From NCBI RefSeq assembly GCF_017348835.2, contig NZ_CP071375.1: a stretch of DNA of 64,000 bases. One strand, 5' to 3'. The translations under genes and the position numbers were made by a program. The stretch comes from Escherichia coli. GTDB lineage: Bacteria > Pseudomonadota > Gammaproteobacteria > Enterobacterales > Enterobacteriaceae. Below are positions 41,720 to 64,000 of the stretch, one piece after another (the stretch's first letter is position 1; each line of letters begins with the position of its first letter). Below the pieces are notes generated by a model, which searched no databases, was not told the DNA's origin, and was given only the letters and a program-made list of their open reading frames with translations.

Positions 41720-41726
41720 GCGTGTG

Positions 41727-43304: not shown

Positions 43305-44588
43305 TTACAGACTTCTGGAAGGTTGCGCAGCTCTTACAACACGCGGTTGATCTTCCGCGGCGTCTTCCAGCGCACTTAAATCACGGTCTTTCACTTCTGG
43401 CATTTTCAGCGCAGAGATTAAACCAATCACTGAATATGCCATGATCATAATGGCGATCGGATACCAGGATTCCGTCATGGTGCAGAAAATACCCGCCAGG
43501 ATAGGACCAAAACCGGAAGCGATAAGACCACCAATTTCTTTAGAAATAGCCATCCGGGTAAAGCGGTTTTTACAGCCGAACATTTCTGCCATGGTAATGT
43601 TTTCCAGAGCAAATAATCCCAGCACCGCACAGTTATGAATCACAATCAGTGCAACCATAATGGTGCTCGGGGCATAGCTTTTATCTACGATGATAGAAAG
43701 CATTGGCCATGCCAGCACAATCGCAGAGGTATTCATAATAATATACGGGATCCGGCGACCAATTTTATCGGATAACCAACCAAGGAACGGAATGGTCATA
43801 AAGCCGAGAATCGAACTGATCATCAATGCATCTGTTGGAATTGCTTTGTTAAACAATAACGTCTGTACTAAATAGCCTGCAAGGAAAGTCTGAATTAAAC
43901 CGGAGTTACCCGCCTGACCAAAACGCAGCCCTGTTGCCAGCCAGAAGGATTTGCTCTGGAACATGCTACCAGCAGGTGCAGGTTTTGCTGTCGGTTGGTT
44001 GCTGTCGTTAACCTTCTCAAAGACCGGGCTTTCTTTCAGATTCATACGCAACCAGATAGCAAAGACCATCACGACAACGCTCGCCAGGAACGGTATACGC
44101 CATCCCCACGCCAGCAGTTCCTCTTTACTGAGAATGAAGAACATAAAGGCCCAGATTGCCGTTGCGCTTAAGGTTCCGCAGTTAGTTCCCATAGCCACAA
44201 ATGAGGAGATAATTCCGCGCTTACCTTTTGGCGCATATTCCGCCAGCATCGTACCGGCACCGGAAATTTCCGCACCCGCACCCAACCCCTGAATAATACG
44301 CAGCGTCACCAGCAAGATGGGGGCAAAAACACCAATCTGTGCATAGGTCGGTAACACTCCAATTAAGGTGGTACAGATCCCCATCATGGTGATGGTAATA
44401 AAGAGCACTTTTTTACGCCCTATTCTGTCGCCCATTTTGCCGAAAATAAATGCTCCGACAATACGCGCCACATAACCTGCACCGCAGGTTCCCATTGCCA
44501 AAATTAACGCCATTGCCGTTGATGATTCAGGAAAAAATATTTCATGAAACACTAACGCAGCGCCGAGCGAATATAACTGGAAATCCAT
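43305..44588 (-). CDS. ydfJ: MFS metabolite:H+ symporter, probably N-terminally truncated at the prophage junction
   Basis: 427-aa ORF begins inside the first transmembrane region; the conserved GDRIGRK motif is close to the N-terminus. Confidence 0.7.
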   Translation of the reverse strand: MDFQLYSLGAALVFHEIFFPESSTAMALILAMGTCGAGYVARIVGAFIFGKMGDRIGRKKVLFITITMMGICTTLIGVLPTYAQIGVFAPILLVTLRIIQGLGAGAEISGAGTMLAEYAPKGKRGIISSFVAMGTNCGTLSATAIWAFMFFILSKEELLAWGWRIPFLASVVVMVFAIWLRMNLKESPVFEKVNDSNQPTAKPAPAGSMFQSKSFWLATGLRFGQAGNSGLIQTFLAGYLVQTLLFNKAIPTDALMISSILGFMTIPFLGWLSDKIGRRIPYIIMNTSAIVLAWPMLSIIVDKSYAPSTIMVALIVIHNCAVLGLFALENITMAEMFGCKNRFTRMAISKEIGGLIASGFGPILAGIFCTMTESWYPIAIMIMAYSVIGLISALKMPEVKDRDLSALEDAAEDQPRVVRAAQPSRSL

Positions 44589-45192
44589 AATTCACAGGTG
44601 TTTTTTCCCATCCTGTGGTTTCCTTGGCGTTTTCTAGGTTTTTTCAGATAGTTGCATTTTTTAAAAAGCATCCTAAGTTCGATCTCAGTGTCTATCTGGG
44701 GCCTATTTCTGTCCCATATATGCCCCAAAAAAAACTCCCCAACAGATAAGTAGTTTTTTCATGGATTTATGCGTAAAATCAAGAACGGCTGGAAATCATT
44801 CAATACTCACACTATCGAAAAATTTACCAGCCAACCGCAGCACGTTCTTGCATAAGGCGTGTCTGCGGTTTTTCAACTATTCAGATACATCACTCCCATC
44901 ACATTCATTCCTCCGCATCAAAGGCATATAGGCTATATCACCTTGATATTTTTATTTTTCAGATAAAAACTGTTATCTATGTATACTTTTAAACCCAATC
45001 CGTGTAGAGTCTCTGCATAAGATAGTTTGCAGTTGCCGCTTCAGCTTGCGCCATAAATCGCCTGATTTTTGCTGCCACCTGTTAGCATTCCTGTATACCT
45101 GAAACGACAATGTTTATCTACGAACTTTAAGAACACCCAAGATAAAAATTGTCAACTATATCATATATAACACATTACTAATTCGAGGCTAT

Positions 45193-45306
45193 ATGAACAG
45201 CATACTGATAATCACATCTCTCCTTATCATATTCAGCATTTTTAGTCATGCCCTAATAAAATTAGGGATTGGCATATCCAATAACCCAGACAAAACCGAT
45301 GTATAA
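45193..45306 (+). CDS. Hypothetical small hydrophobic protein (37 aa)
   Basis: [37 protein letters not shown]; one predicted TM helix; weak ribosome-binding site. Confidence 0.3.
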
Positions 45307-45374
45307 GTCAACATATCCTGAATCAGACATACAATATCGCAATGAAAATCAATAATATTTTAAGGAATATCTTC

Positions 45375-45608
45375 ATGAAATCAAAAGACACCCTAAAGTG
45401 GTTCCCTGCGCAGCTTCCTGAAGTAAGAATTATCCTAGGGGATGCTGTAGTGGAAGTAGCAAAACAGGGAAGACCTATCAATACCAGAACATTGCTTGAT
45501 TACATTGAAGGAAACATAAAGAAAAAATCATGGCTGGATAACAAAGAATTATTACAAACAGCGATATCAGTTCTTAAAGACAACCAAAATTTAAATGGTA
45601 AAATGTAA
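45375..45608 (+). CDS. ydfK: Prophage cold-shock-associated small protein
   Basis: ORF starting MKSKDTLKWFPAQLPEVRIILGD after AAGGAA. Confidence 0.75.
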   Translation: MKSKDTLKWFPAQLPEVRIILGDAVVEVAKQGRPINTRTLLDYIEGNIKKKSWLDNKELLQTAISVLKDNQNLNGKM

Positions 45609-45924
45609 TATAATAAACTTACTTTTTTATCATTTTTCCACTTTAACAACATTTTGCTCCACTTTTCCACGACCAAACAACTTGAAATCTGGTTAAAATA
45701 ACACGCAACACTATTCTTCTTCCTTGAGTCCGCCCGGAACTCGAAAAACAAACCGAGTTAAAGCCATTTTTCACAAAATCGATTTTGGGTCTCACCAAAA
45801 TTACGGGGTTGCATACGCATTCGTTTATTTTCGAACGTGTACATACAAATATGCACAAAAATAATCAAAATTATTTTCTGAGATGCATTATGATATGAAC
45901 ACCAATTTCGTATAGAGTCTCACT

Positions 45925-46515
45925 ATGTCTCGAATTTTTGCTTACTGTCGGATATCAACGCTGGATCAGACCACCGAAAATCAACGCCGGGAAATCGAAA
46001 GTGCAGGTTTTAAAATCAAACCTCAGCAAATAATCGAAGAACACATTAGCGGCTCAGCAGCAACCAGTGAGCGTCCTGGTTTTAACCGGTTGCTTGCTCG
46101 CCTGAAATGTGGTGATCAATTGATTGTGACAAAACTGGATCGCCTTGGTTGTAATGCAATGGATATCAGGAAAACAGTGGAACAACTGACCGAAACAGGT
46201 ATCAGAGTGCATTGCTTAGCATTGGGGGGCATTGACCTGACCAGTCCAACAGGAAAAATGACGATGCAAGTAATTTCAGCAGTCGCTGAATTTGAACGAG
46301 ACCTTTTACTTGAACGCACTCATTCCGGGATAGTAAGAGCCCGGGGCGCAGGGAAACGTTTTGGTCGACCACCTGTGTTAAATGAAGAACAGAAACAGGT
46401 GGTATTCGAACGAATTAAGTCAGGTGTAAGTATAAGTGCCATTGCCCGGGAATTCAAAACCTCGCGGCAAACCATTTTAAGAGCCAAAGCAAAACTTCAG
46501 ACACCTGACATATAA
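45925..46515 (+). CDS. pinQ: Serine recombinase (DNA invertase/resolvase family)
   Basis: 196-aa ORF with N-terminal catalytic motif YCRISTLDQ and C-terminal HTH. Confidence 0.8.
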
Positions 46516-46612
46516 AAAATAATCTCGGTGTGAGATGCTTTACGTCTTCCAAGCCACCTTCCTTGCCGTAAATGGAAAGATACATCTAATTATAGAATTT
46601 ATATGTTTTACC

Positions 46613-47188
46613 CTACGGCAGTGCTGGCCATTCAATATCCTGTGCAGTTGACGTATCAACACGGTTCAGCAATACCCGATACTTTTTCCATGCTTCCAGC
46701 AACGAGATTTCTTCCTCCGTTGCAATTTCCAGATCTGCAGCATCCTGAAGCGGCGCAATATGCTCACTGGCTACCTGCATCAGGCTGTTTTTTGTTTCTT
46801 CCGCCTCCCGGATCCGGAACAGTTTTTCTGCTTCCGTATCCTTCACCCAGGCTGTGCCGTTCCACTTCTGATATTCCCCTCCCGGCGATAACCAGGTAAC
46901 ATTTTCCGGTAACGGACCGAGTTCAGAAATAAATAACGCGTCGCCGGAAGCCACGTCATAAACCGTTTTACCCCGATGATCTTCAACGAGATGCCACGAT
47001 GCCTCATCACTGTTGAAAACAGCCACGAAGCCTGCCGGAATATCTGGCGGTGCAATATCGATACTGTTTGCTGGCAGACCTGTATGAGGCGGAATATATG
47101 CGTCACCTTCACCAATAAATTCATTAGTTCCGGCCAGCAGATTATAAATTTTTATGGTCCGTGGTTGTTCACTCATTCTGAATGCCAT
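46613..47188 (-). CDS. tfaQ: Tail fibre assembly protein
   Basis: 191-aa Tfa-like ORF directly downstream of the tail-fibre C-terminus. Confidence 0.8.
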
Positions 47189-48741
47189 TATGCAAGCCTC
47201 ACAATATAGTTAAATGCGATGTTTTTGACGGTGTTTTCCGCGTTACCAGCAGCGTTAACGGTGATGGTATGTCCATGTGAACCAATCGCAACGGAGTGCG
47301 TATGAGCACCAATACCGACAGTATGTGCGTGTGCACCTGCGCTTGCAGCAGTACCCGATACAGAGTGCGTATGAGCGCCTGCAGAAGAAGTGTTAACACT
47401 GTATTTAGAGTAATCAGGTGATCCACTTCCCGGAGCACCACTGGAACCACCTGAAACAAATGTCATCGAATGGGTATGTGCACCGGCTGAAGCAGCCGTA
47501 CCGCTAACACTATGGGTATGCGCACCAGTGTTATTCGTGGATTTAGTGCCGTAATCAAACGACGATGTGGTTTTCGTCCCCAAATCCGTACTGGATACGC
47601 TGGCGCTGTGGGTGTGTGATTTAATGCCGTCCTGTTCCTGAGACAATACGGCTCGATCACTGGCGGGCTTGCCCTTAATCGTCCAGCCACGCATATCCCC
47701 TTTCGTTTTCATCCAGTCTTTGACAATCTGCACCCAGGTGGTGAACGGGCTGTACGCTGTCCAGATGTGAAAGGTCACACTGTCAGGTGGCTCAATCTCT
47801 TCACCGGATGACGAAAACCAGAGAATGCCATCACGGGTCCAGATCCCGGTCTTTTCGCAGATATAACGGGCATCAGTAAAGTCCAGCTCCTGCTGGCGGA
47901 TGACGCAGGCATTATGCTCGCAGAGATAAAACACGCTGGAGGGGTCATCCGGCGTCCATTTGAGGCCAAACGGCGTCTCTTTGTCGCCAAATTTAAGATA
48001 CTGCTCCTCCCCGCAGTGCGGGCAGGCAACATGAAAACGCATAAAATGCGGGGATTCACTGGCTGCACGCTCAATCTGGCAGGTGCCTCTCACTTTGGGC
48101 GTGGAGCCACGGATGGACTTTGGCCAGACCGAGCCTTCAATACGTTTGTCGCCAAGGAACGTCGGAGAGCCTTCCTGTTCAATATCCTCATCAAAGGCAG
48201 CAAGTTCATCATAACCCGCCACATCCACCGACTTTTCACGGTAGTTTTTTGCCGCTTTACCGCCCAGGCACCAGAAGCCACGACCATTGGAAAAACGCTT
48301 CATAGTGAGCGTGTTATCCCGGTGCTTTTTGCCATACCACGGAGCCAGCGCCAGCAGCGACGGAATATCGCGGATGGTCGGCTCAACGTGGGTTTTCATA
48401 AAGTTCTCGGCATCACCATCCGTCGGCAACCAGATAAGTGTGTTGCGCTGCTTATGCTCTATAAAGTAGACATAAACACCCAGCAGCATTTTGGAATAAC
48501 CGACACGGGCAGACTTCACCACATTCACCTCACGGATGTAGTCGCTGCCCATCGCATTCATGATGGCCCGCTGAAAGGGCAGTGTTTCCCAGCGCCCTTC
48601 CTGGTATGCGGATTCTTTCGGGAGATAGTAATTAGCATCCGCCCATTCAACGGCGGTCTGTGGCTCCGGCCTGAACAGTGAGCGAAGCCCGGCGCGGACA
48701 AAATGCCGCAGCCTGTTAACCTGACTGTTCGATATATTCAC
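47188..48741 (-). pseudogene. stfQ: In-frame fusion: lambda gpA-like large terminase N-terminal ~350 aa (47694..48741) joined to a side tail fibre C-terminus (47188..47693)
   Basis: ORF starts [23 protein letters not shown]... (lambda A) to ...[10 protein letters not shown], then switches to His-rich tail-fibre sequence ([20 protein letters not shown]...). Confidence 0.8.
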
Positions 48742-49261
48742 TCAGCAACCCCGGTATCAGTTCATCCAGCGCGGCTGCTTTGTTCATGGCTTTGATGATA
48801 TCCCGTTTCAGGAAATCAACATGTCGGTTTTCCAGTTCCGGAAAACGCCGCTGCACCGACAGGGGGATCCCGTCGAGAATACTGGCAATTTCACCTGCGA
48901 TCCGCGACAGCACGAAAGTACAGAATGCGGTTTCCACCACTTCAGCGGAGTCTCTGGCATTTTTCAGTTCCTGTGCGTCGGCCTGCGCACGCGTAAGTCG
49001 ATGGCGTTCGTACTCAATAGTCCCTGGCTGGAGATCTGTCTCGCTGGCCTGCCGCAGTTCTTCAACTTCCCGGCGCAGCTTTTCGTTCTCAATTTCAGCA
49101 TCCCTTTCGGCATACCATCTTATAACGGCGGCAGAGTCATAAAGCACCTCATTACCCTTGCCACCGCCTCGCAGAACGGGCATTCCCTGTTCCTGCCAGT
49201 TCTGAATGGTACGGATACTCGCACCGAAAATGTCAGCCAGCTGCTTTTTGTTGACTTCCAT
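48716..49261 (-). CDS. nohA: Terminase small subunit (lambda Nu1 homologue)
   Basis: 181-aa [45 protein letters not shown]...; overlaps the A start as in lambda. Confidence 0.9.
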
Positions 49262-49450
49262 TGTTCATTCCACGGACAAAAACAGAGAAAGGAAACGACA
49301 GAGGCCAAAAAGCCCGTTTTCAGCACCTGTCGTTTCCTTTCTTTTCAGAGGGTATTTTAAATAAAAACATTAAGTTATGACGAAGAAGAACGGAAACGCC
49401 TTAAACCGGAAAATTTTCATAAATAGCGAAAACCCGCGAGGTCGCCGCCC
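49262..49450 (-). other. Lambda-type cos site: cosN 12-nt cohesive end at 49439..49450, cosB region between cosN and nohA
   Basis: Minus strand reads CCGACAGGTTACG-GGGCGGCGACCT-CGCGGGTTTTCGCTATTTATGAAAATTTTCCGGTTTAAGG, the lambda end junction, then a lambda-like region up to the Nu1 start. Confidence 0.85.
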
Positions 49451-49649
49451 CGTAACCTGTCGGATCACCGGAAAGGACCCGTAAAGTGATAATGATTATC
49501 ATCTACATATCACAACGTGCGTGGAGGCCATCAAACCACGTCAAATAATCAATTATGACGCAGGTATCGTATTAATTGATCTGCATCAACTTAACGTAAA
49601 AACAACTTCAGACAATACAAATCAGCGACACTGAATACAGGGCAACCTC

Positions 49650-49844
49650 ATGTCAACGAAGAACAGAACCCGCAGAACAACAACCCGCAACATCCGCTTT
49701 CCTAACCAAATGATTGAACAAATTAACATCGCTCTTGATCAAAAAGGGTCCGGGAATTTCTCAGCCTGGGTCATTGAAGCCTGCCGCCGGAGACTAACGT
49801 CAGAAAAGAGAGCATATACATCAATCCAGAGTGATGATGGATGA
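49650..49844 (+). CDS. Small prophage protein, YlcI/YnfO-like
   Basis: 64-aa basic ORF immediately beyond cos. Confidence 0.5.
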   Translation: MSTKNRTRRTTTRNIRFPNQMIEQINIALDQKGSGNFSAWVIEACRRRLTSEKRAYTSIQSDDG

Positions 49845-50094
49845 ACATCCCGGTTTCTTTACCTTCCCTCCCTCCCCGCACAGAACTGGCGAGCGTGAGG
49901 GACCAATATGTGAGCCATAAATGCCTTATCTTCAGAAATGCAGTTGGTATCCGAACAGGACGATATTGTAAATTCACCTAAATACGAGGCATTGCTGTAG
50001 TTGAATTGCAGTACTGTATTAGCCTGACAGTGACAGAATACGATATTGACTCTGTCACTTGTGAAATGGTCAGAATGGTTAGCAGTTATGGTGA

Positions 50095-50301
50095 TCAGTC
50101 AACCAACAGGGAATAATCCTTCGTATTCTTATCGTGCTTTACTAACGCGGCCTCAATTGCCCTGAATGCTTCCAGAGATACTTGATGTTCTATACATGCA
50201 ATTACAACATCCGGGTAACCCATCGAAATGGTGCTATTAAGCATAGTTTTTACACGAACCTGCTCCTGGGAGGGGGCATCAATGTATTGATCTTTATGCA
50301 T
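50095..50301 (-). CDS. Hypothetical prophage protein
   Basis: 68-aa ORF; function unknown. Confidence 0.4.
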
Positions 50302-50596
50302 TTTGTCGCTCCATTCGTTTGCTCTTCACTTGCGGCTAAAAATATAACGTCAAATCACTCAGCATGAAAGAGTGAAAGTTTCAGCGCGTTTCCCTTACAT
50401 AATCTGTCGTTTGTATTCTCTTCAGGCATACCGGAAAGACTAGGTATTGTCACACAACCAATACCATCGACAATCGAGATTTATATCTATTCGGTAATGT
50501 TTAAATATAACAAAACCCCGTAAAAACGAGGTTTATGGGTAATTTGTATTGTTGAATAGCATCTGATGAGAAATTGATGCTAATACTATAAACATG

Positions 50597-50770
50597 CTAG
50601 ATTAAATCAATCTTGATATCATAGCTTTCAAGACCAGTCATTTTTTCCCGTGCAGTAAACTGGATACTGGTAACTTCTTTCCCGGTCTTTTTCTTAAGCT
50701 CAATGATTTTTTTTGTTATATATTCAGAAATATCTGCTTCTGTTTTTGTTTTTAACTCTTCAATGTTCAT
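50597..50770 (-). CDS. gnsB: GnsA/GnsB-family protein
   Basis: 57-aa ORF MNIEELKTKTEADISEYITKKIIELKKKTGKEV...ESYDIKIDLI; GAGG ribosome-binding site. Confidence 0.7.
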   Translation of the reverse strand: MNIEELKTKTEADISEYITKKIIELKKKTGKEVTSIQFTAREKMTGLESYDIKIDLI

Positions 50771-50942
50771 CATTTCCTCTTTTAGTCTGTTATGACTGTC
50801 CTGGTACACAGTAGTGTCAATTATATGGAGCAAACGTATAAAAGATAAGATGAAACATCGCAATAATCAACATACGACGGTCTAAATTTCACACAAACAG
50901 ATAAAAATGATTATCATTTATTATCAATGCATTAGAATCAAA

Positions 50943-51173
50943 TCAATTCAAGAGTCTCATTGCTGCTTCCAGAATTTCTTCTGAAGTTACATGTCGATCC
51001 GCTGCTACATAAATGACTTTATGATCTCCGGTCAGAGATGGAAACCCTGCAGCCATTACAGTGAGGTGTGTTGTTTCGCCATTTGGATATTCACGCATGA
51101 TGGTGTTAACTCCGGTCATCACTGGCACTACCATTGCTGGTTCAGAGTTAAAAAAAACTATTATTTTTTTCAT
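50943..51173 (-). CDS. Small prophage protein (YnfN-like); start codon uncertain
   Basis: ORF 50943..51212 with several possible in-frame starts. Confidence 0.4.
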   Translation of the reverse strand: MKKIIVFFNSEPAMVVPVMTGVNTIMREYPNGETTHLTVMAAGFPSLTGDHKVIYVAADRHVTSEEILEAAMRLLN

Positions 51174-51444
51174 AATGTTACCGTAATATGTGAGTATCCA
51201 TCGACTAGACACTAAGCAAAAAAGCTCCCGAAGGAGCCTTCATTTTCACTTTCTTAAATCTAACGACAGATGGCTAACATTTAAGTATTGTGAAATATTA
51301 TCAAATGTAATCATCATTGATTTACAAAAGATACATTTTGCCCCGAAAGGATTTCTGTCAGAAACATCAAAAGATGATGTTCTATACTGAGAACCATGGC
51401 AACACGGGCATCTAAAGTGAATATGGTTTGTAATATTTTCTACC

Positions 51445-51657
51445 TCAAAGTGCCACTACATGAACAGCTGCAGGGCCTTTAGGTCCGTTCTCAATACCAA
51501 ATTCGACTTCCTGATTCTCAGTTAACGTTTTGAAATCGTTGCTCTGAATAGCTGAGAAATGCACAAACACATCTTTGCTACCATCTTTCGGCGTGATGAA
51601 ACCAAAACCTTTTTCAGGGTTAAACCATTTCACTAAACCAGTCATTTTGTTAGACAT
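51445..51657 (-). CDS. cspI: Cold-shock protein
   Basis: 70-aa cold-shock-domain ORF ([21 protein letters not shown]...). Confidence 0.9.
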
Positions 51658-52020
51658 CATTATTACCTTTTGAAGAAGTTAGCCCTTGGGCAGAATGGTC
51701 CGAAAAAAAATATCAGAGAGAAAAACCAACAAGGAAATCTCAAGAGGTACAAATAATAAAATTATAACAATGACTGCTTCAGATAATTTTGTAACAAACC
51801 AGAACACCATTAACGCATGATTAACCAACCATAGCAAGGATTACTTTTGTAAAGAAAAACACACGAATGAAACAATAGCTTTATTTATTAATAAAACGTG
51901 TCATTCTGTCTAATGACCTTTTATCTTACCCTTAAGATTTCAAGGATTTTGACTCATGGAAGAGTCCTTTTTATTTAAATTTCACATTCAGCGCTAAAAA
52001 TAATCCGATTTAATATTAAT

Positions 52021-53050
<1,030 letters not shown>

Positions 53051-53163
53051 GGATATTTATCAGGATTTATCGGCTTCAAATCCCCGGATATGTTAAATCT
53101 TACCTCACCAGTGATGGGCACTGGCGGGAGGAGGATGTCAATCTGATAAACACAGAGGTGACT

Positions 53164-53424
53164 ATGGATTACACAAATCTACCAAAACAAACTTTTGCTG
53201 ATTTAATCGCACTCAGGCAAGCAGTCGTAGCTCTAATCAACTTGTTGCCGGAGAAGGAAAAGGAATTAGTTAAAGCGCTTCTTAACAGAACTGCCGCCGA
53301 TTTTTCATCATATCCACTGACAGATGACCTTGCGGACCTTCCTGAATTAATTGCAGCGTCCGCCATTAAGCTTACTGAAGAGATTTACCCTCCTCAAAAA
53401 TCTTCACAAAATTCCTGCGAGTAA
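53164..53424 (+). CDS. Hypothetical acidic protein on the opposite strand inside the lysis cassette
   Basis: 86-aa ORF from ATG at 53164, preceded by AGAGG at 53153-53157; helical acidic sequence; no homologue recognised. Confidence 0.4.
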   Translation: MDYTNLPKQTFADLIALRQAVVALINLLPEKEKELVKALLNRTAADFSSYPLTDDLADLPELIAASAIKLTEEIYPPQKSSQNSCE

Positions 53425-53923
53425 CTTCAATGCAATAATCGTAAAACGCCGCAAACTGCTCATCGCGGCGTTTTTTTTCATCTTCAGAAGGAATCAGCAC
53501 CGACAATTTTTTATTCAGATCAGCGACGCTGCCCTCCAGTTTTTCAATGGGCGATTCAATATCATCTTTTTCTGACCGCAATGCCGTCGGTGGCGTCTTC
53601 AGAGAACCAGTAATTCTTCCCGGTAGCTTTCCTTTGTAGGTTATCCACACATTCTGCGCCTCTAAAATTATGGGGCGCTTTTCCGGCGACTGCTCATCCC
53701 CTTCACATAACCCGGCAGCAACATCCAGGAAGACCTGTCTGATGCTCATTCTGGCTGCTGCCTCATAAAACTCCAGCGCGGCACCTTCAACACGGTCCAG
53801 CGAGATGTCCAGGTCAAAAATTTCACCGTCAAAGCGTTCTTTGTCCTGTAATGCTAAAGTTACCGTAACTTTATTCTCAAAATTGCGGATCCCTTTCACA
53901 ATCAGTTCATAGTTTTGAGTCAT
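53372..53923 (-). CDS. Prophage protein between holin and endolysin (YdfR-like position)
   Basis: 183-aa ORF; same position as K-12 ydfR, but that gene is recalled as shorter. Confidence 0.5.
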   Translation of the reverse strand: MTQNYELIVKGIRNFENKVTVTLALQDKERFDGEIFDLDISLDRVEGAALEFYEAAARMSIRQVFLDVAAGLCEGDEQSPEKRPIILEAQNVWITYKGKLPGRITGSLKTPPTALRSEKDDIESPIEKLEGSVADLNKKLSVLIPSEDEKKRRDEQFAAFYDYCIEVTRRNFVKIFEEGKSLQ

Positions 53924-53927
53924 TGAA

Positions 53928-54143
53928 TTACTCTCCTCTCGCAGCCTTACGCCTGTCTTCTTTAATCTTGAAATAAAGATTTGTCAGATACGTCAGCAGG
54001 CCAAAAACCAGGCTACCCAGCACACCGATTGCAGCCCACTGTGACGGAGTTACTTTATCGAGTAACTGCAATGCCCAGAAACCAGCATTACCCGCCGATG
54101 TGCCATAGGCAACACCTGTTGTTAACTTATCCATTGATTTCAT
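53928..54143 (-). CDS. essQ: Holin (phage-21 S-type pinholin-like)
   Basis: [71 protein letters not shown]; two TM helices and a charged C-terminus. Confidence 0.85.
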
Positions 54144-54363
54144 ATCCTCACCCCGATGTACACGGATGGTGCAATATGTTTGAAAAGATCGGAGTCTACG
54201 GGGTAGTTTTGACAGCACACGTTGTTCTCAACGGCGCTAAAGAAACATACACATTAAAAATGTGAGTAATTATTTTTTAAAGAAAGTCATATATAAAATA
54301 ATAATACGAGAAATGTTTTCATATTTAGTGTACTGTATACGGCCATTTATACAGGAAAAGCCT

Positions 54364-54534
54364 ATGTCAGAACGTAAAGACTCAAAATCACGCCGTAATT
54401 ATCTCGTTAAATGTTCCTGCCCAAACTGCACCCAAGAGTCAGAACACAGTTTTTCAAGAGTACAAAAAGGTGCCCTTTTGATCTGCCCTCATTGCAACAA
54501 AGTATTCCAGACAAATCTTAAAGCTGTAGCCTGA
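54364..54534 (+). CDS. Small zinc-ribbon protein (56 aa, two CxxC pairs)
   Basis: MSERKDSKSRRNYLVKCSCPNCTQESEHSFSRVQKGALLICPHCNKVFQTNLKAVA; ribosome-binding site AGGAAAAG. Confidence 0.55.
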   Translation: MSERKDSKSRRNYLVKCSCPNCTQESEHSFSRVQKGALLICPHCNKVFQTNLKAVA

Positions 54535-54593
54535 TTGATTTTATTAGTAACAAGTATTTTTTATATTTTAATAATATATTTAAAGCAGATAAT

Positions 54594-54617
54594 AAAAAAC
54601 CCGCCTGAGCGGGTTTG
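54594..54617. terminator. Bidirectional intrinsic terminator
   Basis: A-run + CCCGC-ctga-GCGGG + ttt. Confidence 0.7.
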
Positions 54618-54897
54618 AGATTGTGGTGCTTTTTGTGGGAGTCATCCACTTACGCACTTTGTTTTGCCATGCCAGCAGTTAGCTTCTGCTGTAAAACTAT
54701 TCATGCAGCAAACCTGCACTTCACCACAATGGTTAGCATACTTTTCCTGATTAAGATTTTGCCAAATATGCTGGCCATTGTTTCATGTATTGGACCTCCT
54801 TAATTTTCATTAAAGAGATCCAATATTCACTACTCTGTCCGTATCTCTACTCAGGCATCAGCCTTCTTCGTTATCGTATACAGACGAGCGATGAATT

Positions 54898-55113
54898 TTA
54901 ATCAGTAATGATGACATTTGCTGCTGCAGGACCTTTAGCACCACTCTCTATAGAGAAGGTAACCTTTTGACCTTCAAATAAGGTTCGATAATTATCATTC
55001 TGAATCGCAGAAAAATGCACAAACACATCTTTACTACCATCAACAGGAGAAATAAAGCCGAAACCTTTATCAGCGTTAAACCATTTTACTAAACCAGTCA
55101 TTTTATTTGACAT
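54898..55113 (-). CDS. cspB: Cold-shock protein
   Basis: 71-aa cold-shock-domain ORF. Confidence 0.9.
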
Positions 55114-55411
55114 TCTACATTCCTTAACTTGAGCCTTTCGGCATAAATGGTTTGCATAACAGAAACGACTTCGTACTTAATTGGAGAGACTCAAAGAAGG
55201 AATAAGTGAATAACACCTGAAATGAGAACTGCTTTAGTAAACTACTTCGTATATCGTCTGTTCTTCAAACCGACGCAGTCATTAACTCATAGTTGAACAT
55301 ATGAAGCAATGTTTATTTTAGACATCCAGCCACCTTCAACCCTATCAAAAAAGTAGTTTTCTCCAGGAACGTGTGTATGGTGCACCAGGTTATCAGTATT
55401 AAGGAGTTTTT

Positions 55412-55625
55412 CTGTCCCCTAAAATGACAGGAATTGTCAAAAACTTTGACTACAAAAGCAGCAAAGGTCTTATATTCCCATCCGATGGCGTATCGATGCC
55501 CAGCTTCACGTTTCAGCTCTCAATCTTCGAGATGCAGAAGAAATTACCACAGGATTACGCGTGGAATTTTGCCGGATAAATGGTTCGCGTGGACCTTCAA
55601 CTGCCAATGTTTATCCCGGGATGAG
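55412..55625 (+). pseudogene. cspF: cspF/cspH-like cold-shock gene with a frameshift
   Basis: N-terminal MTGIVKNFD...PSDG is in one frame; the rest ([42 protein letters not shown]) is in another frame that runs on to 55950. Confidence 0.45.
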
Positions 55626-55656
55626 ATTCAATATCTCTATTGCCCCATTTAAAGCA

Positions 55657-55690
55657 CAAAAACCCGCTTATAAGCGGGTTTTCTACTTTT
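55657..55690 (+). terminator. Intrinsic terminator
   Basis: aaaaa-CCCGC-ttataa-GCGGG-tttt. Confidence 0.7.
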
Positions 55691-55788
55691 TTCTAAACGT
55701 CGGATACACAAAGCCCATCGTTGAGAAAATCTTATCCATGTTTTTTGAAAAATGCAAACATCATGTCGCCATCTTCAGCAAAAATCAT

Positions 55789-56513
55789 TTATCTCGTCAC
55801 CTTCCTCAATTGCGCTTCCGCGTATGCTTCTTCCTGCCAGCACTTTGTTACCAGTTTACCAATGACGTCAGCATACCCCTTATACCACTGATAATCGGTC
55901 AGGTCTGGTACCAGCTTCTGGACATGACGTCGTGCCAGCGTGGTCGGTAAACGACTAAACCGGTTTCCATTACAACGCCCACAAATCTTATATACCGGTA
56001 CGCCATGAAACCGGGTTCTTTTTTCATCCAGAACAATCCCTTTACCCTTACACCCTCTGCACGCTGTGCTGACTTCGCCCTTACCATGGCAATGCTGACA
56101 TAGTTCCTTTACCCATTCTTCCTTGATTACAGATTCCCCGCGTCTGTAGTGTTTCACCACTTCGCGCAATACATTATAAAATCCCGTACCTGAACAATGC
56201 TCACAGCGAGCCTTACTTGCCGCAGACCTAGAGTAATCAGCAAAGGCAAAATTCACGAGGTAAGGAATAATCTGTAACCGGATTTCTTCACTCAATTTGT
56301 TCAATGTCGGGTTATCCAGTGCCATCGCGTAATTTAGCAGGCCTTCAATCGCAAACTGAGGGTCCTGAACACCAACTTTTGCCAGAAATAAGGCCAACCC
56401 AAGTGGTGCTTTCGACTGCACCATCCCCTGCGCTGCCATTACATCCGTAATTGTTAAACAACCGGTGCCTGTCGCTGGAGCGTCATCGCTCAATTTTGGA
56501 GATTTTGGGGAGT
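55789..56513 (-). CDS. quuQ: Late-gene antiterminator Q-like protein with four CxxCxGxG zinc motifs; 5' end removed by IS629
   Basis: 234-aa ORF starts at TTG 20 bp from the IS end; frame is open right up to the IS boundary at 56514. Sits upstream of the cold-shock morons and lysis genes. Confidence 0.6.
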
Positions 56514-56555
56514 TGAACCGCCCCGGGTTTCCTGGAGAGTGTTTTATCTGTGAAC

Positions 56556-57443
56556 TCAGGCTGCCAGATCATTATTTCCGATGGAAGCATAATAAGCTTT
56601 TTCTGCTTCTGCCGGAGGAATATGGCCCAGCCTTTCCAGCAATCGTCGATTGTTATACCAGTCCACCCACGTTAGTGTGGCCAGTTCCACTTCTGTCCGG
56701 TTTTTCCAGCTCTTACGGTGTATTACCTCCGCTTTGTAAAGACCATTGATGCTCTCAGCCATCGCGTTGTCATACGAGTCGCCAGTACTCCCTGTTGATG
56801 CCAGTAATCCGGCTTCCTTAAGCCGCTGCGTGTAGGCCAGCGATACATACTGAGAACCTTTATCACTGTGATGGATTGTGCCGGACGGCCGACGGGCCCA
56901 CAACGCCTGCTCCAGTGCATCCAGCACGAATGTTGTTTCCATGGATGATGAGACCTGCCATCCCACGATGTATCCGGCGAACACATCAATGATGAACGCC
57001 ACATAAACGAAGCCCTGCCATGTGCTTACCCAGGTAAAATCAGCCACCCACAACTGGTCTGGACGTTCTGCCACGAACTGACGGTTTACGCGGTCGCATG
57101 CGGCAACGGCTTTCCGGCTGACGGTAGTGCGGACCTTTTTACCCCGGAGAACACCGGCAAGTCCCATAACTGCCATGAGACGTGCCACAGTGCATCTGGC
57201 CACTCTGATACCTTCCCGTAACAACTGACGCCAGACTTTACGCACACCGTATACCTGGTGATTTTCATCGTATACGCGCTGTATCTCTTTCTTCAGCCAG
57301 TCATCGTGCTGCGCACGGGCACTGCGTTTATCCGGATGATGTCGCTGTTGCTGACAATGGTAATACGTTGACGGGGCAATATGCAGTTCGCTGCATACCG
57401 GTCCGACCCCGTACTGCTCACGCAGCTTATCCAGCAGTGGCAT
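56556..57443 (-). CDS. IS629-like transposase OrfB (DDE); expected to be made as an OrfAB fusion by -1 frameshift
   Basis: 295-aa ORF; A-rich slippery stretch (GGAAAAAATAATG) at the orfA/orfB overlap. Confidence 0.9.
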   Translation of the reverse strand: MPLLDKLREQYGVGPVCSELHIAPSTYYHCQQQRHHPDKRSARAQHDDWLKKEIQRVYDENHQVYGVRKVWRQLLREGIRVARCTVARLMAVMGLAGVLRGKKVRTTVSRKAVAACDRVNRQFVAERPDQLWVADFTWVSTWQGFVYVAFIIDVFAGYIVGWQVSSSMETTFVLDALEQALWARRPSGTIHHSDKGSQYVSLAYTQRLKEAGLLASTGSTGDSYDNAMAESINGLYKAEVIHRKSWKNRTEVELATLTWVDWYNNRRLLERLGHIPPAEAEKAYYASIGNNDLAA

Positions 57444-57769
57444 TATTTTTTCCAGAGGCGGTCGAACTCCGCCTTCGCAAAATAAGCGGAAGCCTGGCGA
57501 AGGATATCGTTACTGCGGCGCAGTTCACGATTTTCACGTTCCAGCTCTTTCAGACGCTGACGTTCAGCGGTGGTGAGTCCACCATCACCACTCCCGGTAT
57601 CCCGCTCATGCTGGCGAACCCAGACACGCAGAGTCTCCGGCGTACAGCCAATCTTTGGGGCAATGGAACAAATTGCCGCCCACTGTGAGTCATATTCATC
57701 CTGACTTTCCAGAACCATACGAATCGCCCGCTGACGGACTTCGGGGGAAAAACGAGTATTTTTAGTCAT
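57443..57769 (-). CDS. IS629-like transposase OrfA
   Basis: 108-aa ORF identical to 4167..4493. Confidence 0.9.
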
Positions 57770-57874
57770 CCTGTTTACCTCTTTCTCAGGGAGTTTAGTC
57801 TCCAGGATTTCCGGGGCGGTTCATTAAAGATTTTTTTGTGCATGCCGATAGTGCTTTTTTAAAAGGAGAAATCT

Positions 57875-58207
57875 ATGTCTGTCACAATTCAGGGAAATAC
57901 CTCAACCGTTATTTCAAACAACTCCGCCCCGGAAGGAACATCAGAAATAGCCAAAATCACAAGACAAATTCAGGTGCTGACTGAAAAGCTTGGGAAAATC
58001 TCATCGGAAGAGGGGATGACGACACAGCAGAAAAAAGAAATGGCTGCATTGGTACAGAAGCAAATTGAAAGCCTCAGGGCTCAACTGGAGCAGTTGTTAA
58101 GGCAGCAGGCAGAGAAAAAGAATGAAGACGCGACAGTTCAGCCTGATAAAAAAGAAGAGAAAAAAGACGATACAAATACCGCTGGCACCATTGATATTTA
58201 CGTCTAA
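57875..58207 (+). CDS. flxA: Prophage protein FlxA
   Basis: 110-aa ORF MSVTIQGNTSTVISNNSAPEGTSEIAKITRQIQVLTEKLG... with ribosome-binding site. Confidence 0.7.
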   Translation: MSVTIQGNTSTVISNNSAPEGTSEIAKITRQIQVLTEKLGKISSEEGMTTQQKKEMAALVQKQIESLRAQLEQLLRQQAEKKNEDATVQPDKKEEKKDDTNTAGTIDIYV

Positions 58208-58221
58208 GTGACAGCCGTATT

Positions 58222-58245
58222 GTGGCCCTCATCGGGCCACTTTTC
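58222..58245 (+). terminator. Intrinsic terminator after flxA
   Basis: GTGGCCC-tcatc-GGGCCAC-ttttc. Confidence 0.75.
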
Positions 58246-58643
58246 GCCATCAGCCTTTTCTTTAAAGACATATTATCTTTGTATCATTTCTGATAGTTAA
58301 CATTACAAGATATAAGTAATGGACGCACTCCCAATTAGTCTATTTAAATCGCCACGAGTTTAACTGACAACCCATGATCAATTATGAATTGCAACTATTT
58401 CTGTAGTCACTTTTGTGGGGACAGTCCACAAAACTGCCAACTTCCGCTTCTTGCTCTTAGCGGACATTAGCATAGGCTATTTACCATAACGCCTCATTAC
58501 GCGCACCGCCCAGACTGACTCAGCGCGTTTCTGGCATATCCCCGGTAAAACAAGTAACAAACCACCCGAAAATGAACACCAGAAACGCGACTTAAGAATC
58601 TACCCTATGAATGGATATGCACTCAACCGAATCGATCTTGGTT

Positions 58644-59985
58644 TCAATCTTTTTTATCGGGATCAGGCTTCTTTTTAGGTAACTTCGGGGGCTTAACTTG
58701 CTGATGACTTTGCGTTCGGCGCGTAAGCCAGGGATGGTCAGCTTTAGGTTTAACATAGTATTTTGAGCGTAAATCAATACGGGCATTATCCACTCGTTCA
58801 TGGACACTCTTTTCATCATCCAGTGGTATAGGCTCCGGGCCATCAACATACTTTTCCCAGCCCAGCGCTTTCCCGTCATACAGAACGTTAATTTCACCGT
58901 CAAAGTTCTCGCATACAGTAACAACCGAATGCCTAAGTCGATATCCCCGGCCCTCACTGCGTACCTGAAACGCACTGCTTTTGTACTGGAAAGTGAGATT
59001 TTTAGACAGAACGCGCTTCGCCTGTAGGCTGAAGATATAACCCAGTTCCTCTTCAGAATGGTGCACATCAAGATGAGCATTATCAGTAGTACGAGGCGAC
59101 GTAGCGAACCGGTTGTTATAGGCTTCAATAAAGGTCGGCAACCATGCATTTGCTGTTTCAATATCACTGATATTCTGAAGCCGCATTTCTTTGACCAGCC
59201 TGTCCTGTAGTGTCTGATTGGCGCGCTCTACCCGCCCTTTTGCCTGCGGGCTGTTGGCATGGATTGGCTCGATGCCCAGTGTCTTTATCGCACGAGTGAA
59301 CTGGGTCAGCTCACCTTCCCGCTCTGGGTTATTTACCCTGAATATACTGTGTCTATCAGAGTAGAGAGCGAGCGGTACGCCATGATCATTAAGGTAACCC
59401 CGGAGGGTTTCCATGTAAGCCCGGGTTGTTTCAGCAGGCACAAAACGCAACGCCATCAACGCACTGGTGGCATCATCAATGAAAACGATCAGTGTACATC
59501 TGGGGCCTCGATTTTCAAACCAGTCATGAGGTGAGCCATCAATCTGGATCAGTTCACCGTAAGATGGTCGTCGCATGCGGCGTTGATATATACGGGCAAT
59601 TTTACGACGGCGTTCACGCCATACCCCCCTCTTCTATCATCCACTTTCTGAGAGTTTCAACGGATAAAGATAAACCGTGTATCTCGCGCAATTTTTCGCA
59701 CGCAAACGTAGGTCCAAAATCAGCGTAACGGCCTTTGAGGAGTGAAATTACTGTTGCTCTGAATTCAGTAGAAAAGGAATTATTAGGACGCTTTCCACGT
59801 CGGTGGGAAACCAGACCAGAAGGCCCTTCATTTCTATACCGTTGCACCAGACGTTTAACCTGCCGAATAGAAATGCCAATGCGTGCCGCAGCTTGTTCCT
59901 GAGTAATATGTCGATTAATTGACTCCTGAATAATCTGAAGTCGGTGGAGTTCCTTATGACTCATCGTAACAGTTTCTTTGGTCAT
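58644..59985 (-). pseudogene. HTH + DDE (integrase-core) transposase split into two frames (IS481/ISNCY-like)
   Basis: N-terminal HTH ORF 59614..59985 and DDE ORF 58644..59576 are in different frames; a C7 run sits at the junction (59625-59631). Confidence 0.6.
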
Positions 59986-60319
59986 GAAAAATCCCCCAGA
60001 GAATTGTCTGGGGACATTTTAGAATGGTTCAAAGGGGACATTACAGCTTGGTGTTAACAATAGCCTGCTTCTCCTTGCCTTTCGGCACGTAAGAGGCTAA
60101 CCTACATGTGTCTGGCATGAAATTGGCCTCAGATTAATGTTAAGCGTCTTGCAGGACGCGTAATGTTAACTGGGGCTTTTCTCTACCTGCCGTTGGTGTT
60201 CGTGCCCGAGGCAGATAGCCTCAAGCACCCGCAGTCATTCTACTTAACTAAGATTTCCCCGCAAACCGTTTTTGTCCAGCACAGTAAATATCCAACTAAA
60301 CCAATGGAGTTCGCTGTAT

Positions 60320-60499
60320 TTACCGCCAGTATTCAATGCACATGACCGCCATGAACACCCCTAAAAAAAGGGCATTTATATATCCAAATATTAATATCAA
60401 AACATCAACTTTTTCCATATACCTTGCTGTGAAGATGATGGGCATACATGATGCGAACAACCAGAACGCAACAAACAAAAACTGCAATGCGTTTTTCAT
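60320..60499 (-). CDS. Hypothetical small membrane protein (59 aa, two predicted TM helices)
   Basis: ATG at 60499 four nt after a perfect AGGAGG; MKNALQFLFVAFWLFASCMPIIFTARYMEKVDVLILIFGYINALFLGVFMAVMCIEYWR. Confidence 0.5.
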   Translation of the reverse strand: MKNALQFLFVAFWLFASCMPIIFTARYMEKVDVLILIFGYINALFLGVFMAVMCIEYWR

Positions 60500-61651
60500 T
60501 ATTCCTCCTACAATCAATGTGCAATTACATTTAAACACACCTCAATTTGGCCGGACATATAAATATCTAAACCAGAAAAAATCACTTACATAGCGTTACA
60601 AACTCTTTAGTCTAAAGGTTCATCGTAAAACATTCCCCATACTTATCAGTCCGTTCCGCGCCAGGTAGCTCATTGCCTTATCTGGCAACCTGTAATCAGG
60701 TTTCCGCTTTTTCAGTTGGCTGGTCGTTTAACCGACATAGTTAACCCATTAATCTAGTTGCCGGATGTTGGTGGATTTTCGCGTTTTAGTTGTTCATAAA
60801 AGTGCACAGCTTTAACCAATTCTTCTGATGTAACCGGGACTGGTGAGGCAGTGAATAAGGCCTGAATTTGATAGTTCGGCCTGTCGTTACAATCCTCTTT
60901 TTTCGGTACATATTTCCAGTCACCAGACCACTACTTCCCCTGAAAGTCCGTAACGCCTTTTTTCACGTAGCGATATCGCCATGTCACTGGTTTTGCTTGC
61001 CCCGCCGTTTCATGCCCTTCCTGATAATTAATCTCGCTCATTCATCGCCCCACTCATCACAATATGCTTCGACCGGAGTTTTTCCCGCTTCATAGTCATC
61101 ACGCTAGGATTCGACATCAGCAGCACTTCCACCGCGTAACTCACCATAGTCCATTAATAGTTCATCCCGCTCTTCAAAACTGATGTTATATTTAGCTGAA
61201 CAAAAATCAGCCACTTTGTTCTTCCTCATCGTCTTTTATTTCGTGGTATGAGTAATTGCAGTAGTTAAAGAAAATTTCTTATGCTCCGTCATGAATTTCA
61301 TCAGGTGTTGCGTCATCGTCCACTTCGAATACATCCTCAAAATCTCCACCAGCTATTCCCGTTTCAATAATAATTTTGAACTTTCGCATTTCACTACCGC
61401 CCTTTCGGGCGGCCTCCTGATGTTCTGAGGGTGCAGAAATCCATCCGGTTAAGGATTAAGTTTTATTTACAGAACTGAATTTAATTATTCAGATATACGT
61501 ATCTGTAACCTTACGAATCTACTCACTGGATGCCTCTTTCATAAAAATAATCCAGTGGGTTTTATCGTTTTTTCCCTGTTCGTTGACAGATAACAGGCTT
61601 TCTATCTGTCAGTGCCAGAATCTGGCTTACCGGTATTTGCGTTTCATTCCA

Positions 61652-62008
61652 TTAAAAAATCAGAACGCCGTGCGGCCTCAACACCCGAAAAGCTTCTTTA
61701 AATCTCTGTCGCAAATCATCACGCCAGGCATCTTTATTCAGCCGTCCATATTTCTTTCCCATCCAGGCGTTATCACCAACACGCTCAAGATGCGGAGGGT
61801 CTAATACAACCATCGAAAAAGATGCGTCTGCAAATGATAATGCACGAAAATCTGCGATAATGTCAGGGCTGATAATCAAGCGTCTCCCATTGCGTAATGT
61901 GTATCCTTCTTTTCTGATATCGCTAAATATCGCCCGTTCGTCAGACTTATCGAACCAGAACATGCGGCTGCCACAGCACATATCAAGAATGGTTGCCGGT
62001 GCACTCAC
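61652..62008 (-). pseudogene. DNA methyltransferase fragment (motif I, DPPH motif IV; C-terminus missing)
   Basis: 118-aa ORF from GTG: DMCCGSRMF, VVLDPPHL, RVLRPHGVLIF, then stops abruptly. Confidence 0.5.
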
Positions 62009-62535
62009 TGCGCCACGTCCTGAAAATTACCCTGATAGAAAGCCAGTATGCGCTGCATAACTTCGCTCTTCCGGCACTCGCGACAGATTATGTTTAGGCG
62101 ACTGTCGTAGCGACGTATTTCTCCGTCAGGTGATGACCAGATAAGGTCCGGATCAACCACAGCAGGTTTCTTCACCTTTGCCCTCGAGAGTTTTTTGCGG
62201 GCGTTTTGCCAGTCCTTACGCGCCTGTTCAGAGGGGAATAACCCGTATCTGATATCCCAAAAAATGAAACCGCACCGGAAGCTGAACCATCTGTAGAGCG
62301 TGAGGGGCCGTTCTATTTCCTCTTCGCAGATAAGGACGGAGAAAAATACGGTCGCGCAAACAAACTTTCTGGTCTGGATAAGGCACTGGCTGCTGGCGCC
62401 ACTGAAATCACAAAAGAAGAATATTTTGCCCGAAAAAATGGCACATACACGGGCTTACCGCAAAATGTAGATACCGCTGAAGATTCAGAACAACCAGAGC
62501 CGATAAAAGTTACCGCTGACGAAGTAAACAAAATT

Positions 62536-63615
62536 ATGCAGGCAGCCAATATCAGCCAGCCTGACGCCGATAAGTTGCTTGCTGCATCACGTGGTGAATT
62601 TGTTGAAGGGATTAGTGACCCGAATGATCCGAAATGGGTTAAGGGGATCCAGACCCGCGATTCTGTGAACCAGAACCAGCATGAATCGGAACGGAACTAC
62701 CAAAAAGCGGAACAAAACAGCCCAAATGCGTTACAAAACGAGCCAGAAACGAAACAGCCTGAATCAGTGGCGCAACAGGAAGTGGAAAAAGTCTGCACCG
62801 CCTGCGGTCAGACCGGCGGCGGCAACTGCCCTGATTGTGGCGCGGTGATGGGCGACGCAACATACCAAGAAACATTCGATGAAGAGTATCAGGTTGAAGT
62901 TCAGGAAGATGATCCGGAGGAAATGGAAGGCGCTGAACATCCACACAAGGAGAACGCTGGCGGCAATCAGCATCACGATAGCGATAATGAAACTGGCGAG
63001 ACGGCAGATCACTCAATTAAGGTGAACGGTCATCACGAAATCACATCCACCAGCAGGACGTGTGACCATCTAATGATCGACCTTGAAACCATGGGAAAAA
63101 ATCCTGATGCCCCGATCATCTCAATAGGTGCAATATTTTTCGATCCGCAAACCGGAGATATGGGACCGGAATTTAGTAAGACTATCGATCTGGAAACTGC
63201 TGGCGGAGTCATTGATCGGGACACCATTAAATGGTGGCTTAAGCAATCACGCGAAGCGCAATCGGCCATTATGACCGATGAAATCCCGTTAGATGATGCA
63301 CTGTTACAATTGCGGGAATTTATCGACGAAAACTCCGGTGAATTTTTTGTTCAGGTTTGGGGAAATGGAGCCAACTTCGACAACACGATTTTGCGCCGTT
63401 CATACGAACGGCAGGGGATCCCCTGCCCGTGGCGTTACTACAACGATCGCGATGTACGCACAATCGTTGAGCTGGGGAAAGCCATAGACTTCGATGCCAG
63501 AACGGCTATTCCATTCGAAGGTGAGCGCCATAATGCACTTGATGACGCCCGTTACCAGGCAAAATACGTTTCAGTTATCTGGCAAAAACTGATCCCGAGT
63601 CAGGCTGATTCTTAA
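62536..63615 (+). CDS. Prophage protein with zinc ribbon and C-terminal DEDD (DnaQ-like) 3'-5' exonuclease domain
   Basis: 359-aa [19 protein letters not shown] zinc ribbon; exonuclease motifs [25 protein letters not shown]. The frame is open upstream to 62242 without a start codon. Confidence 0.7.
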
Positions 63616-63687
63616 TGTTCAACTGTCGCCGGTTGTGACTGGTATTCTGCAACCGGCGCTCGTCTGATGTAAGAGATAAAGAAATCG

Positions 63688-63939
63688 ATGAGCGAAGTAA
63701 TCATGATTGTCTCTCCCGGCAAATGGGTATCCGAAGAGCAGTTAATTGCGCTGAAAGGAATAAAAAAAGGTACGTTAAAAAAGGCCCGGGAAAAATCGTT
63801 TATGGAAGGAAGGGAATATAAGCATGTCGCTCATGACGGTATGCCATGGGATAACAGTCCATGCTTTTACAACCTGGAAGAAATTGATCGCTGGATTGAG
63901 CGCCAGGCATCAGCAAGACCAAGACGTCATCTTACTTGA
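63688..63939 (+). CDS. Excisionase-like small DNA-binding protein
   Basis: 83-aa basic ORF immediately upstream of the integrase start. Confidence 0.5.
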   Translation: MSEVIMIVSPGKWVSEEQLIALKGIKKGTLKKAREKSFMEGREYKHVAHDGMPWDNSPCFYNLEEIDRWIERQASARPRRHLT

Positions 63940-63974
63940 CTAAAAGCCACACTAACTAATGAGAGAAGTTGAAA

Positions 63975-64000
63975 TGAAATATCCGACAGGCGTGGAAAAC
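63975..64000 (+). CDS. Start of a tyrosine integrase gene (IntR-like N-terminus MKYPTGVEN...), truncated by window end
   Basis: ATG at 63975 followed by MKYPTGVEN, resembling the N-terminus of Rac-type integrases; only 9 codons are in the window. Confidence 0.4.

Follow-up and report, generated by a model that had tools for sequence, protein, structure and literature searches.

An IS629-like element in place of a 3140-bp interval between Q and flxA in a Qin-type cryptic prophage of Escherichia coli

The IS629-like element and its flanking genes

The 64,000-nt stretch of Escherichia coli DNA analyzed here (the window) contains a cryptic lambdoid prophage of the Qin type: it lies between ydfJ and rspB and follows the order ...cspI–rzpQ–rrrQ–ydfR–essD–cspB–cspF–Q...flxA, as read from the annotation of the collinear genomes F2_81 and PE164 in comparison with K-12. 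The late region of this prophage is already annotated as decayed in relatives. Between Q and flxA sits a complete IS629-like insertion sequence (IS) of the IS3 family (56514..57823, minus strand; 1310 bp), recognized by its termini, its open reading frames (ORFs), and a profile match. The ends read TGAACCGCCCCGG... and ...CCGGGGCGGTTCA and are of the TG...CA type that marks IS3-family termini. Its terminal inverted repeats (IRR, 56514..56538; IRL, 57799..57823) are imperfect: 22 of the first 25 positions agree, TGAACCGCCCCGG at the tips included, giving the layout TGAACCGCCCCGG(GTT/AAA)TCCTGGAGA. Both ORFs are intact and lie on the minus strand: orfA (57443..57769; 108 aa) and orfB (56556..57443; 295 aa) overlap at GGAAAAAATAATG, with its A6 slippery run, and the element has the two ORFs, the −1 frameshift signal, and the DDE transposase of its family. 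OrfB scores 312 bits against the NCBIfam model NF033516 (IS3-family transposase; cut-off, 160). The element is equal in length to an O157:H7 copy annotated as “IS3-like element IS1203 family,” to which it is 95.95% identical (53 mismatches, 0 gaps), and near-identical copies in RefSeq genomes are annotated as “IS3 family transposase, programmed frameshift.” Given the ~96% identity to the IS1203-family copy, “IS629-like” seems a fair name for the element, and “IS629-like isoform” would be the safe one. It is potentially active.

No target site duplication accompanies the element. Its flanks, ...ttttggggagt on the left and ttaaagatt... on the right, match neither over 3 bp (agt versus tta) nor over 4 bp (gagt, 56510..56513, versus ttaa, 57824..57827), which is as expected for an IS copy that later mediated a deletion. 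An initial annotation, made from the letters of the window and without database searches, had described a complete 1310-bp IS629-like copy lacking a duplication, and our reinspection of the flanks, which found no matching repeat, confirms that description. A simple scan found no sigma-70 promoters at either end of the IS, and hence we do not propose that the element drives expression of either flxA or Q.

On its left, the IS adjoins the antiterminator gene Q (quuQ/ydfT; 55789..56513, minus strand), which its ORF, its translation, and its alignment to F2_81 identify as truncated at the 5′ end. The stop codon of the remnant lies at 55789, and the first 28 nt (the ATG and nine codons) and the Shine-Dalgarno sequence are missing relative to F2_81 and K-12. 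In F2_81, ydfT is 753 nt long (positions 16290..17042 of the region compared), with an N terminus of MNLEALPKYYSPKSPKL... and a GGAG seven nt upstream; the alignment between the window and F2_81 stops within the gene, at region position 17014. Beyond the junction at 56513, the Q frame runs through 19 further codons of IS sequence, none of them a start codon, before it reaches a stop, and the first possible internal starts are a TTG at 56493 and an ATG at 56439. By these alignments, Q has lost its translation start and ribosome-binding site, as the initial annotation had proposed from the frame left open into the IS, and the late region of the prophage would now be without its antiterminator.

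On its right, the element is followed by an intact flxA (57875..58207, plus strand; 110 aa), whose ATG at 57875 lies 51 bp past the IS end, close to the 50 bp originally estimated. The FliA (sigma-28) promoter motif of flxA, the 28-mer TAAAGATTTTTTTGTGCATGCCGATAGT (57825..57852, plus strand), begins 2 nt beyond the IS end and is also intact; this exact 28-mer is given as the FliA site of flxA in a ChIP-seq list (PMC4183435). With its sigma-28 promoter kept, flxA is probably still FliA dependent.

The missing interval in related genomes

A search with a 24-kb query around the site led to two very close finished genomes, F2_81 (pig, Australia) and PE164 (NZ_CP114128.1; pig, China). F2_81 has no IS at this locus and carries an uninterrupted Q(ydfT)–ydfU–92-aa ORF–rem–hokD–relE–relB–ydfV–flxA. 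To the left of the IS, window positions 39500..56513 are collinear with positions 1..17014 of the F2_81 region at 99.8% identity, gagt occupying 17011..17014; to its right, collinearity restarts with ttaa at region position 20155 and continues over 57824..64000 (region positions 20155..26331) at 100% identity. The F2_81 positions in between, 17015..20154, are exactly the 3140 bp missing from the window, bounded at the exact termini of the IS. Collinear flanks in the reference orientation, with a gap starting precisely at the IS termini, are the configuration of an IS-mediated deletion, and with both flanks in the reference orientation, an inversion is ruled out. K-12 MG1655 likewise has 3140 bp between the junction points, comprising ydfU, the 92-aa ORF, rem, hokD, relE, relB, and ydfV, and is 100% identical to the window over 70 nt on each side of the junction. 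One endpoint of the deletion is nucleotide 28 of Q, and the other lies 51 bp upstream of flxA.

Within the 64-kb window, no trace of the 3140-bp segment is present elsewhere, and tblastn searches of the whole window with RelE, RelB, HokD, Rem, and YdfV returned chance-level matches only (E = 0.04 to 0.09); relocation of the segment to another part of the genome is unlikely. Judged against F2_81 and K-12, the ancestral order in this lineage was Q–ydfU–(92-aa ORF)–rem–hokD–relE–relB–ydfV–flxA, and relBE (a type II toxin-antitoxin system), hokD (a type I toxin), ydfU, rem, and ydfV have gone from the locus. The initial annotation had placed hokD and relBE between Q and flxA in the Qin prophage of K-12, which holds for MG1655, and had described them as absent here, with the IS where K-12 carries ydfU, rem, hokD, relBE, and ydfV; the presence of these genes in both F2_81 and K-12 attributes their absence to deletion. 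Its argument that the IS is not a simple insertion also stands, given the unmatched flanks and the full gene set without an IS in F2_81. Far from placing Q directly beside flxA with no IS, the near-identical prophage of F2_81 shows the opposite, a full interval.

PE164 is the nearest finished relative of the window genome (4 to 6 mismatches per 17 to 35 kb). The two agree in both the site and the orientation of an IS629 copy in hipA, and hipBA is intact in F2_81; because this insertion is common to the window genome and PE164 and absent from F2_81, the former two are sisters relative to F2_81. PE164 also has a lesion in Qin. As in the window, an IS629-like element without a duplication replaces DNA beside the 5′ end of Q, and the flanks of the two lesions are 99.98 to 100% identical; unlike in the window, the IS is inverted, and the deletion is larger (4427 versus 3140 bp), taking flxA and ydfW as well, with its far end in the remnant of an ISEsa1/ISNCY transposase (window position 59107). 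The left flank of the PE164 element ends in ...ttttggg, 4 bp short of the Q-side junction of the window. Four clustered differences (positions 160, 183, 184, and 244) distinguish the Q-site IS of PE164 from that of the window, and the flanking 4.9 kb is identical. Other IS629 copies of the lineage do carry duplications, with caac flanking the hipA copy of PE164 and ttt the ynfC copy of F2_81.

A second lesion in the window affects hipA, where a 440-bp IS629 remnant (4108..4547, minus strand), corresponding to IS positions 871..1310 and 100% identical to the full copy, separates a 3′ part of the gene (3697..4109) from a 5′ part (4548..4842). At the matching site, PE164 carries a complete IS with the 4-bp duplication caac; the losses relative to PE164 amount to 615 bp in hipA and 869 bp in the IS. 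Unlike at the Qin locus, the break lies within the IS, with a 2-bp microhomology (CA) at the join. A simple IS629 insertion, as in PE164, turned into a deletion of IS plus flank in the window. The initial annotation had hipA broken beside an IS629 copy; the gene is indeed broken, but what adjoins it is a remnant rather than a copy.

The junction survey covered 5426 complete E. coli genomes. Each probe was 92 nt long and joined 70 nt of flank to 22 nt of IS end; the targets were the left and right junctions of the window and the right junction of PE164. Neither window junction occurs in any of these genomes (0/5426), and the right junction of PE164 occurs in no other finished genome among them; apart from the different arrangement in PE164, none has IS629 at either site. 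Similarly, none of the 5426 contains, in one place, a match covering at least 80% of the 3.2-kb region around the element. Five partial matches to this region that we inspected are IS copies at other positions.

Exact-protein look-ups gave a complementary view. The 234-aa, TTG-started version of the Q remnant has no exact match on record, and the YdfU and FlxA alleles are too widespread to single out relatives. The 216-aa version of Q is called in many intact loci, and its look-up also exposed one draft contig with an identical junction: in GCA_019365205.1 (contig JAEOKZ010000034.1), the sequence is 100% identical to window positions 49789..56589, the junction of Q and IS included. This contig stops 76 nt into the IS, and the far side of the element is not visible. 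The same junction of Q and IS thus recurs in an independent draft and is not confined to a single assembly.

Origin of the deletion

We consider it highly probable that an ancestrally present interval of 3140 bp was deleted in an IS629-dependent manner, by one of two routes. Since the IS is exact at both ends and its flanks are unmatched, the event would have depended on the IS, through either transposase or homology, rather than on random illegitimate recombination. In the first of these routes, one IS629 copy would have inserted, with the 5′ end of Q as the most likely site; the transposase would then have linked one end of the element to a site close by in the same DNA molecule, and the stretch beside the IS would have been removed, with the IS staying in place (an adjacent deletion). 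Our reason for favoring the Q site is the IS629 junction of PE164, which lies just 4 bp away. There is precedent for such events: IS3 makes adjacent deletions in which the IS is retained, in a transposase-dependent manner (PMC8860574), and with the IS-excision enhancer, deletions of a few nucleotides to >40 kb arise beside IS629 (PMC9943667; also bioRxiv 10.1101/2023.06.07.543989). As the specific route, adjacent deletion by a single copy stands at about an even chance.

The same end product could have come from two like-oriented IS629 copies, the first in the 5′ end of Q (duplicating agt or gagt) and the second upstream of flxA (duplicating tta), between which RecA-dependent recombination would delete the interval and leave one hybrid IS flanked by half of each duplication. 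Recombination of this kind is the textbook cause of an IS without a duplication, and it accounts for exact ends and unmatched flanks alike. IS629 is, furthermore, multicopy in the relatives (30 to 35 matching places per record, with other parts of the 24-kb query included in the count), and the differences among IS copies of the lineage are patchy, falling at positions 160 to 244 in comparison with the Q copy of PE164 and at 794 to 1170 in comparison with the ynfC copy of F2_81, a pattern that fits exchange. However, this route requires two independent insertions within 3.1 kb followed by recombination, and the surviving IS has no chimera signal that can be assigned to two parents; we rank it only slightly behind adjacent deletion. 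A parental state, whether a simple insertion with its duplication or two flanking copies, was found in none of the 5426 complete genomes, which counts against adjacent deletion and two-copy recombination alike, and with no parental genome found, both the succession of steps and any preference for one route are inferred. The sequence fits either route equally well, and our slight lean toward adjacent deletion after insertion at Q derives from the sister strains, whose Q-side endpoints are near identical and whose far endpoints differ, as would be expected if an anchored IS shed its neighbors. In its simple form, a shared ancestral insertion at Q followed by separate adjacent deletions does not fit the PE164 element, which is inverted, offset by 4 bp, and different at four positions. 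Both sister elements could nonetheless descend from one ancestral insertion if strand transfer 4 bp outside the resident end flipped the element and deleted neighboring DNA, a reaction undescribed for the IS3 family. The Q-side offset between the window and PE164 equals the 4-bp length of the duplication made at hipA (caac), a coincidence that hints at transposase chemistry at the resident end; still, we see this as a long shot, together with its weaker variant, by which IS629 lesions were selected to remove relE, hokD, and hipA in the pig-associated lineage.

Explanations that dispense with an IS-dependent deletion fare worse. Repeats such as IS copies are the classic cause of assembly collapse, and two real IS629 copies around the 3.1-kb segment could in principle have been merged into one with the segment dropped, all the more as the draft contig JAEOKZ010000034.1 ends 76 nt inside the IS; but the window crosses two further IS-type repeats without a break and is elsewhere collinear with two finished genomes, and PE164, itself finished, shows that IS629-bounded deletions in this region are real in the lineage, making an artefact very improbable. 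Least credible of all is that this prophage lineage never had the interval from ydfU to ydfV and that an IS merely inserted between Q and flxA. The region upstream of flxA is indeed mosaic across E. coli: VE-F10 and others have no hokD–relBE at the locus and yet no IS, and several genomes have unrelated genes there. Against this, F2_81 carries the full interval within flanks that match the window up to both junctions, the truncation of Q falls within the gene itself, and simple insertion would have produced a duplication.

Selection could have acted on top of either mechanism if the loss of RelE, HokD, and HipA was advantageous and fixed both the Qin deletion and the disruption of hipA, with IS629 as the instrument and not the cause. 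Both IS629-associated lesions in the 64-kb window affect toxin genes, which is suggestive, and in PE164 another IS629-bounded deletion has independently eliminated these Qin toxins, and hipA is interrupted as well. The cases are just two, however, and came to attention post hoc; the hipA insertion, common by descent with PE164, is not independent; the Qin deletions also take many nontoxin genes; and IS629 is biased toward prophages generally, with 62% of its O157 sites in them (PMC3271280). A purge of toxins by selection is therefore improbable, and a specific role of IS629 in purging toxins is not established by two post hoc cases. The initial annotation was right that toxin loci in the window are missing or broken, but its view that they were to be expected is centered on K-12: the upstream flank of flxA is present in only 1198 of the 5426 complete genomes, and VE-F10 lacks hokD–relBE and an IS alike.

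Significance and comparison with known systems

The locus is an ordinary IS629 deletion scar in a Qin-like cryptic prophage, and the phenomenon behind it is a textbook form of prophage decay through IS elements. It adds one more step to the decay and immobilization of a cryptic prophage by IS elements, with little import beyond the strain, and explains why the Qin locus of this genome has no relBE or hokD and a dead Q. In annotation, Q should be labeled a pseudogene; the lack of relBE and hokD here reflects deletion and not a gap in the assembly. The series of three genomes (the intact F2_81, the window, and PE164) shows active IS629 in a pig-associated E. coli lineage, and the near-coincident junctions of the two sister strains pose a small puzzle for studies of IS3-family mechanism.

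In its cspB–cspF–Q...flxA order, the prophage is the same as Qin of K-12 MG1655, which differs in retaining ydfU, rem, hokD, relE, relB, and ydfV along with an intact Q. Relative to K-12 Qin, the lineage of the window also has a truncated cspF, and in its right arm, ISEsa1/ISNCY remnants, xis, and int replace the dic region.

The closest parallels are the deletions adjacent to IS629 and other IS3-family elements in E. coli O157, where IS629-associated deletions and small structural polymorphisms are described in work that PMC9943667 cites (Ooka 2009; Kusumoto 2011), together with the experimental IS3 system of PMC8860574. What sets the present case apart is the particular deletion, with endpoints at nucleotide 28 of Q and 51 bp before flxA, which is found in 0/5426 complete genomes. 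In other respects the likeness is close: the element belongs to the same IS group, has the same 1310-bp length, is 96% identical to an O157 copy, and lies in a prophage; and, as in O157, the IS is kept with exact ends and without a duplication, and several kb beside it are lost. IS629 makes duplications of 3 to 4 bp, and in four O157:H7 genomes, matching ones were present at 21 of 47 sites and absent from 26; 62% of the IS629 copies in O157:H7 genomes sit in prophages (PMC3271280). By both measures, an IS629 copy that lies in a prophage and has no duplication, such as the one described here, is the majority case.

Lesions at hipA and the lsr/autotransporter block

The hipA gene of the window (3697..4842) is internally deleted: 615 bp are gone, a 440-bp IS629 remnant (4108..4547) stands in their place, and the join between hipA and the remnant carries a 2-bp microhomology (CA). 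In the finished sister strain PE164 (NZ_CP114128.1), the hipA site holds a complete IS629 flanked by a 4-bp duplication (caac), with a 1-bp deletion in the transposase gene of this copy, and in F2_81, a closely related finished pig strain, hipBA is intact. Going by these sequences, the hipA site across F2_81, PE164, and the window is a clean series, in which insertion was followed by deletion.

The window and PE164 also have in common a 10.67-kb block (window 5538..16208) that is absent from F2_81, where the site holds no more than a piece of lsrB joined to part of an autotransporter gene. According to the annotation of PE164, the block contains lsrK, lsrR, lsrACDB, and fragments of an autotransporter pseudogene.

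Junctions of the IS629-like elements at Q and flxA

PE164 carries an inverted IS629-like copy in its Qin region (L008, 17011..18320), whose flanks correspond to window positions 56510 and 59107. The Q-side IS629 junctions of PE164 and the window are 4 bp apart (an offset of the same length as the duplication at hipA), and the far junction in PE164 falls within the ISEsa1 remnant; therefore, flxA and ydfW are also deleted in this strain.

Q genes, which encode the antiterminator, appear to be either recurrent IS targets or tolerated sites. A human gut metagenome contig (L014, 1..130) has a different element inside the same Q gene, approximately 55 nt deeper into the gene, the end of which we take to resemble the terminal sequence of IS3. 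In O157:H7 strain F3113 (L028), a prophage Q gene is truncated by a copy of IS1203.

On the flxA side, the FliA (sigma-28) binding motif published for flxA lies at window 57825..57852, starting 2 nt past the end of the IS. The end of the deletion therefore all but matches the promoter's upstream edge, which may be coincidence or constraint. Several other E. coli genomes (loci L030, L032, L034, and L037) carry markedly different genes immediately upstream of an identical flxA, including those for GmrSD-type, SMC/AAA-type, and GIY-YIG (LEM-3-like) proteins, and have no relBE-hokD there. Because differing genes sit upstream of an identical flxA, this arrangement suggests that a variable hotspot, possibly defense related, adjoins flxA.

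cspF and the right arm relative to K-12 Qin

Downstream of flxA, the minus strand carries remnants of an ISNCY/ISEsa1-type transposase (58644..59985; ORFs of 310 and 123 aa), and the C-terminal end of this remnant corresponds to the K-12 ORF named "ydfW". The cspF gene, annotated as a pseudogene in both F2_81 and PE164, is truncated or frameshifted in the window (55424..55579; 51-aa ORF). Compared with K-12 Qin, the window lacks approximately 260 bp between cspF and Q (at about 55614), including a small ynfS-like ORF, and whereas K-12 Qin has the dic region, the right arm in the window's lineage is without dic and ends in xis and int.
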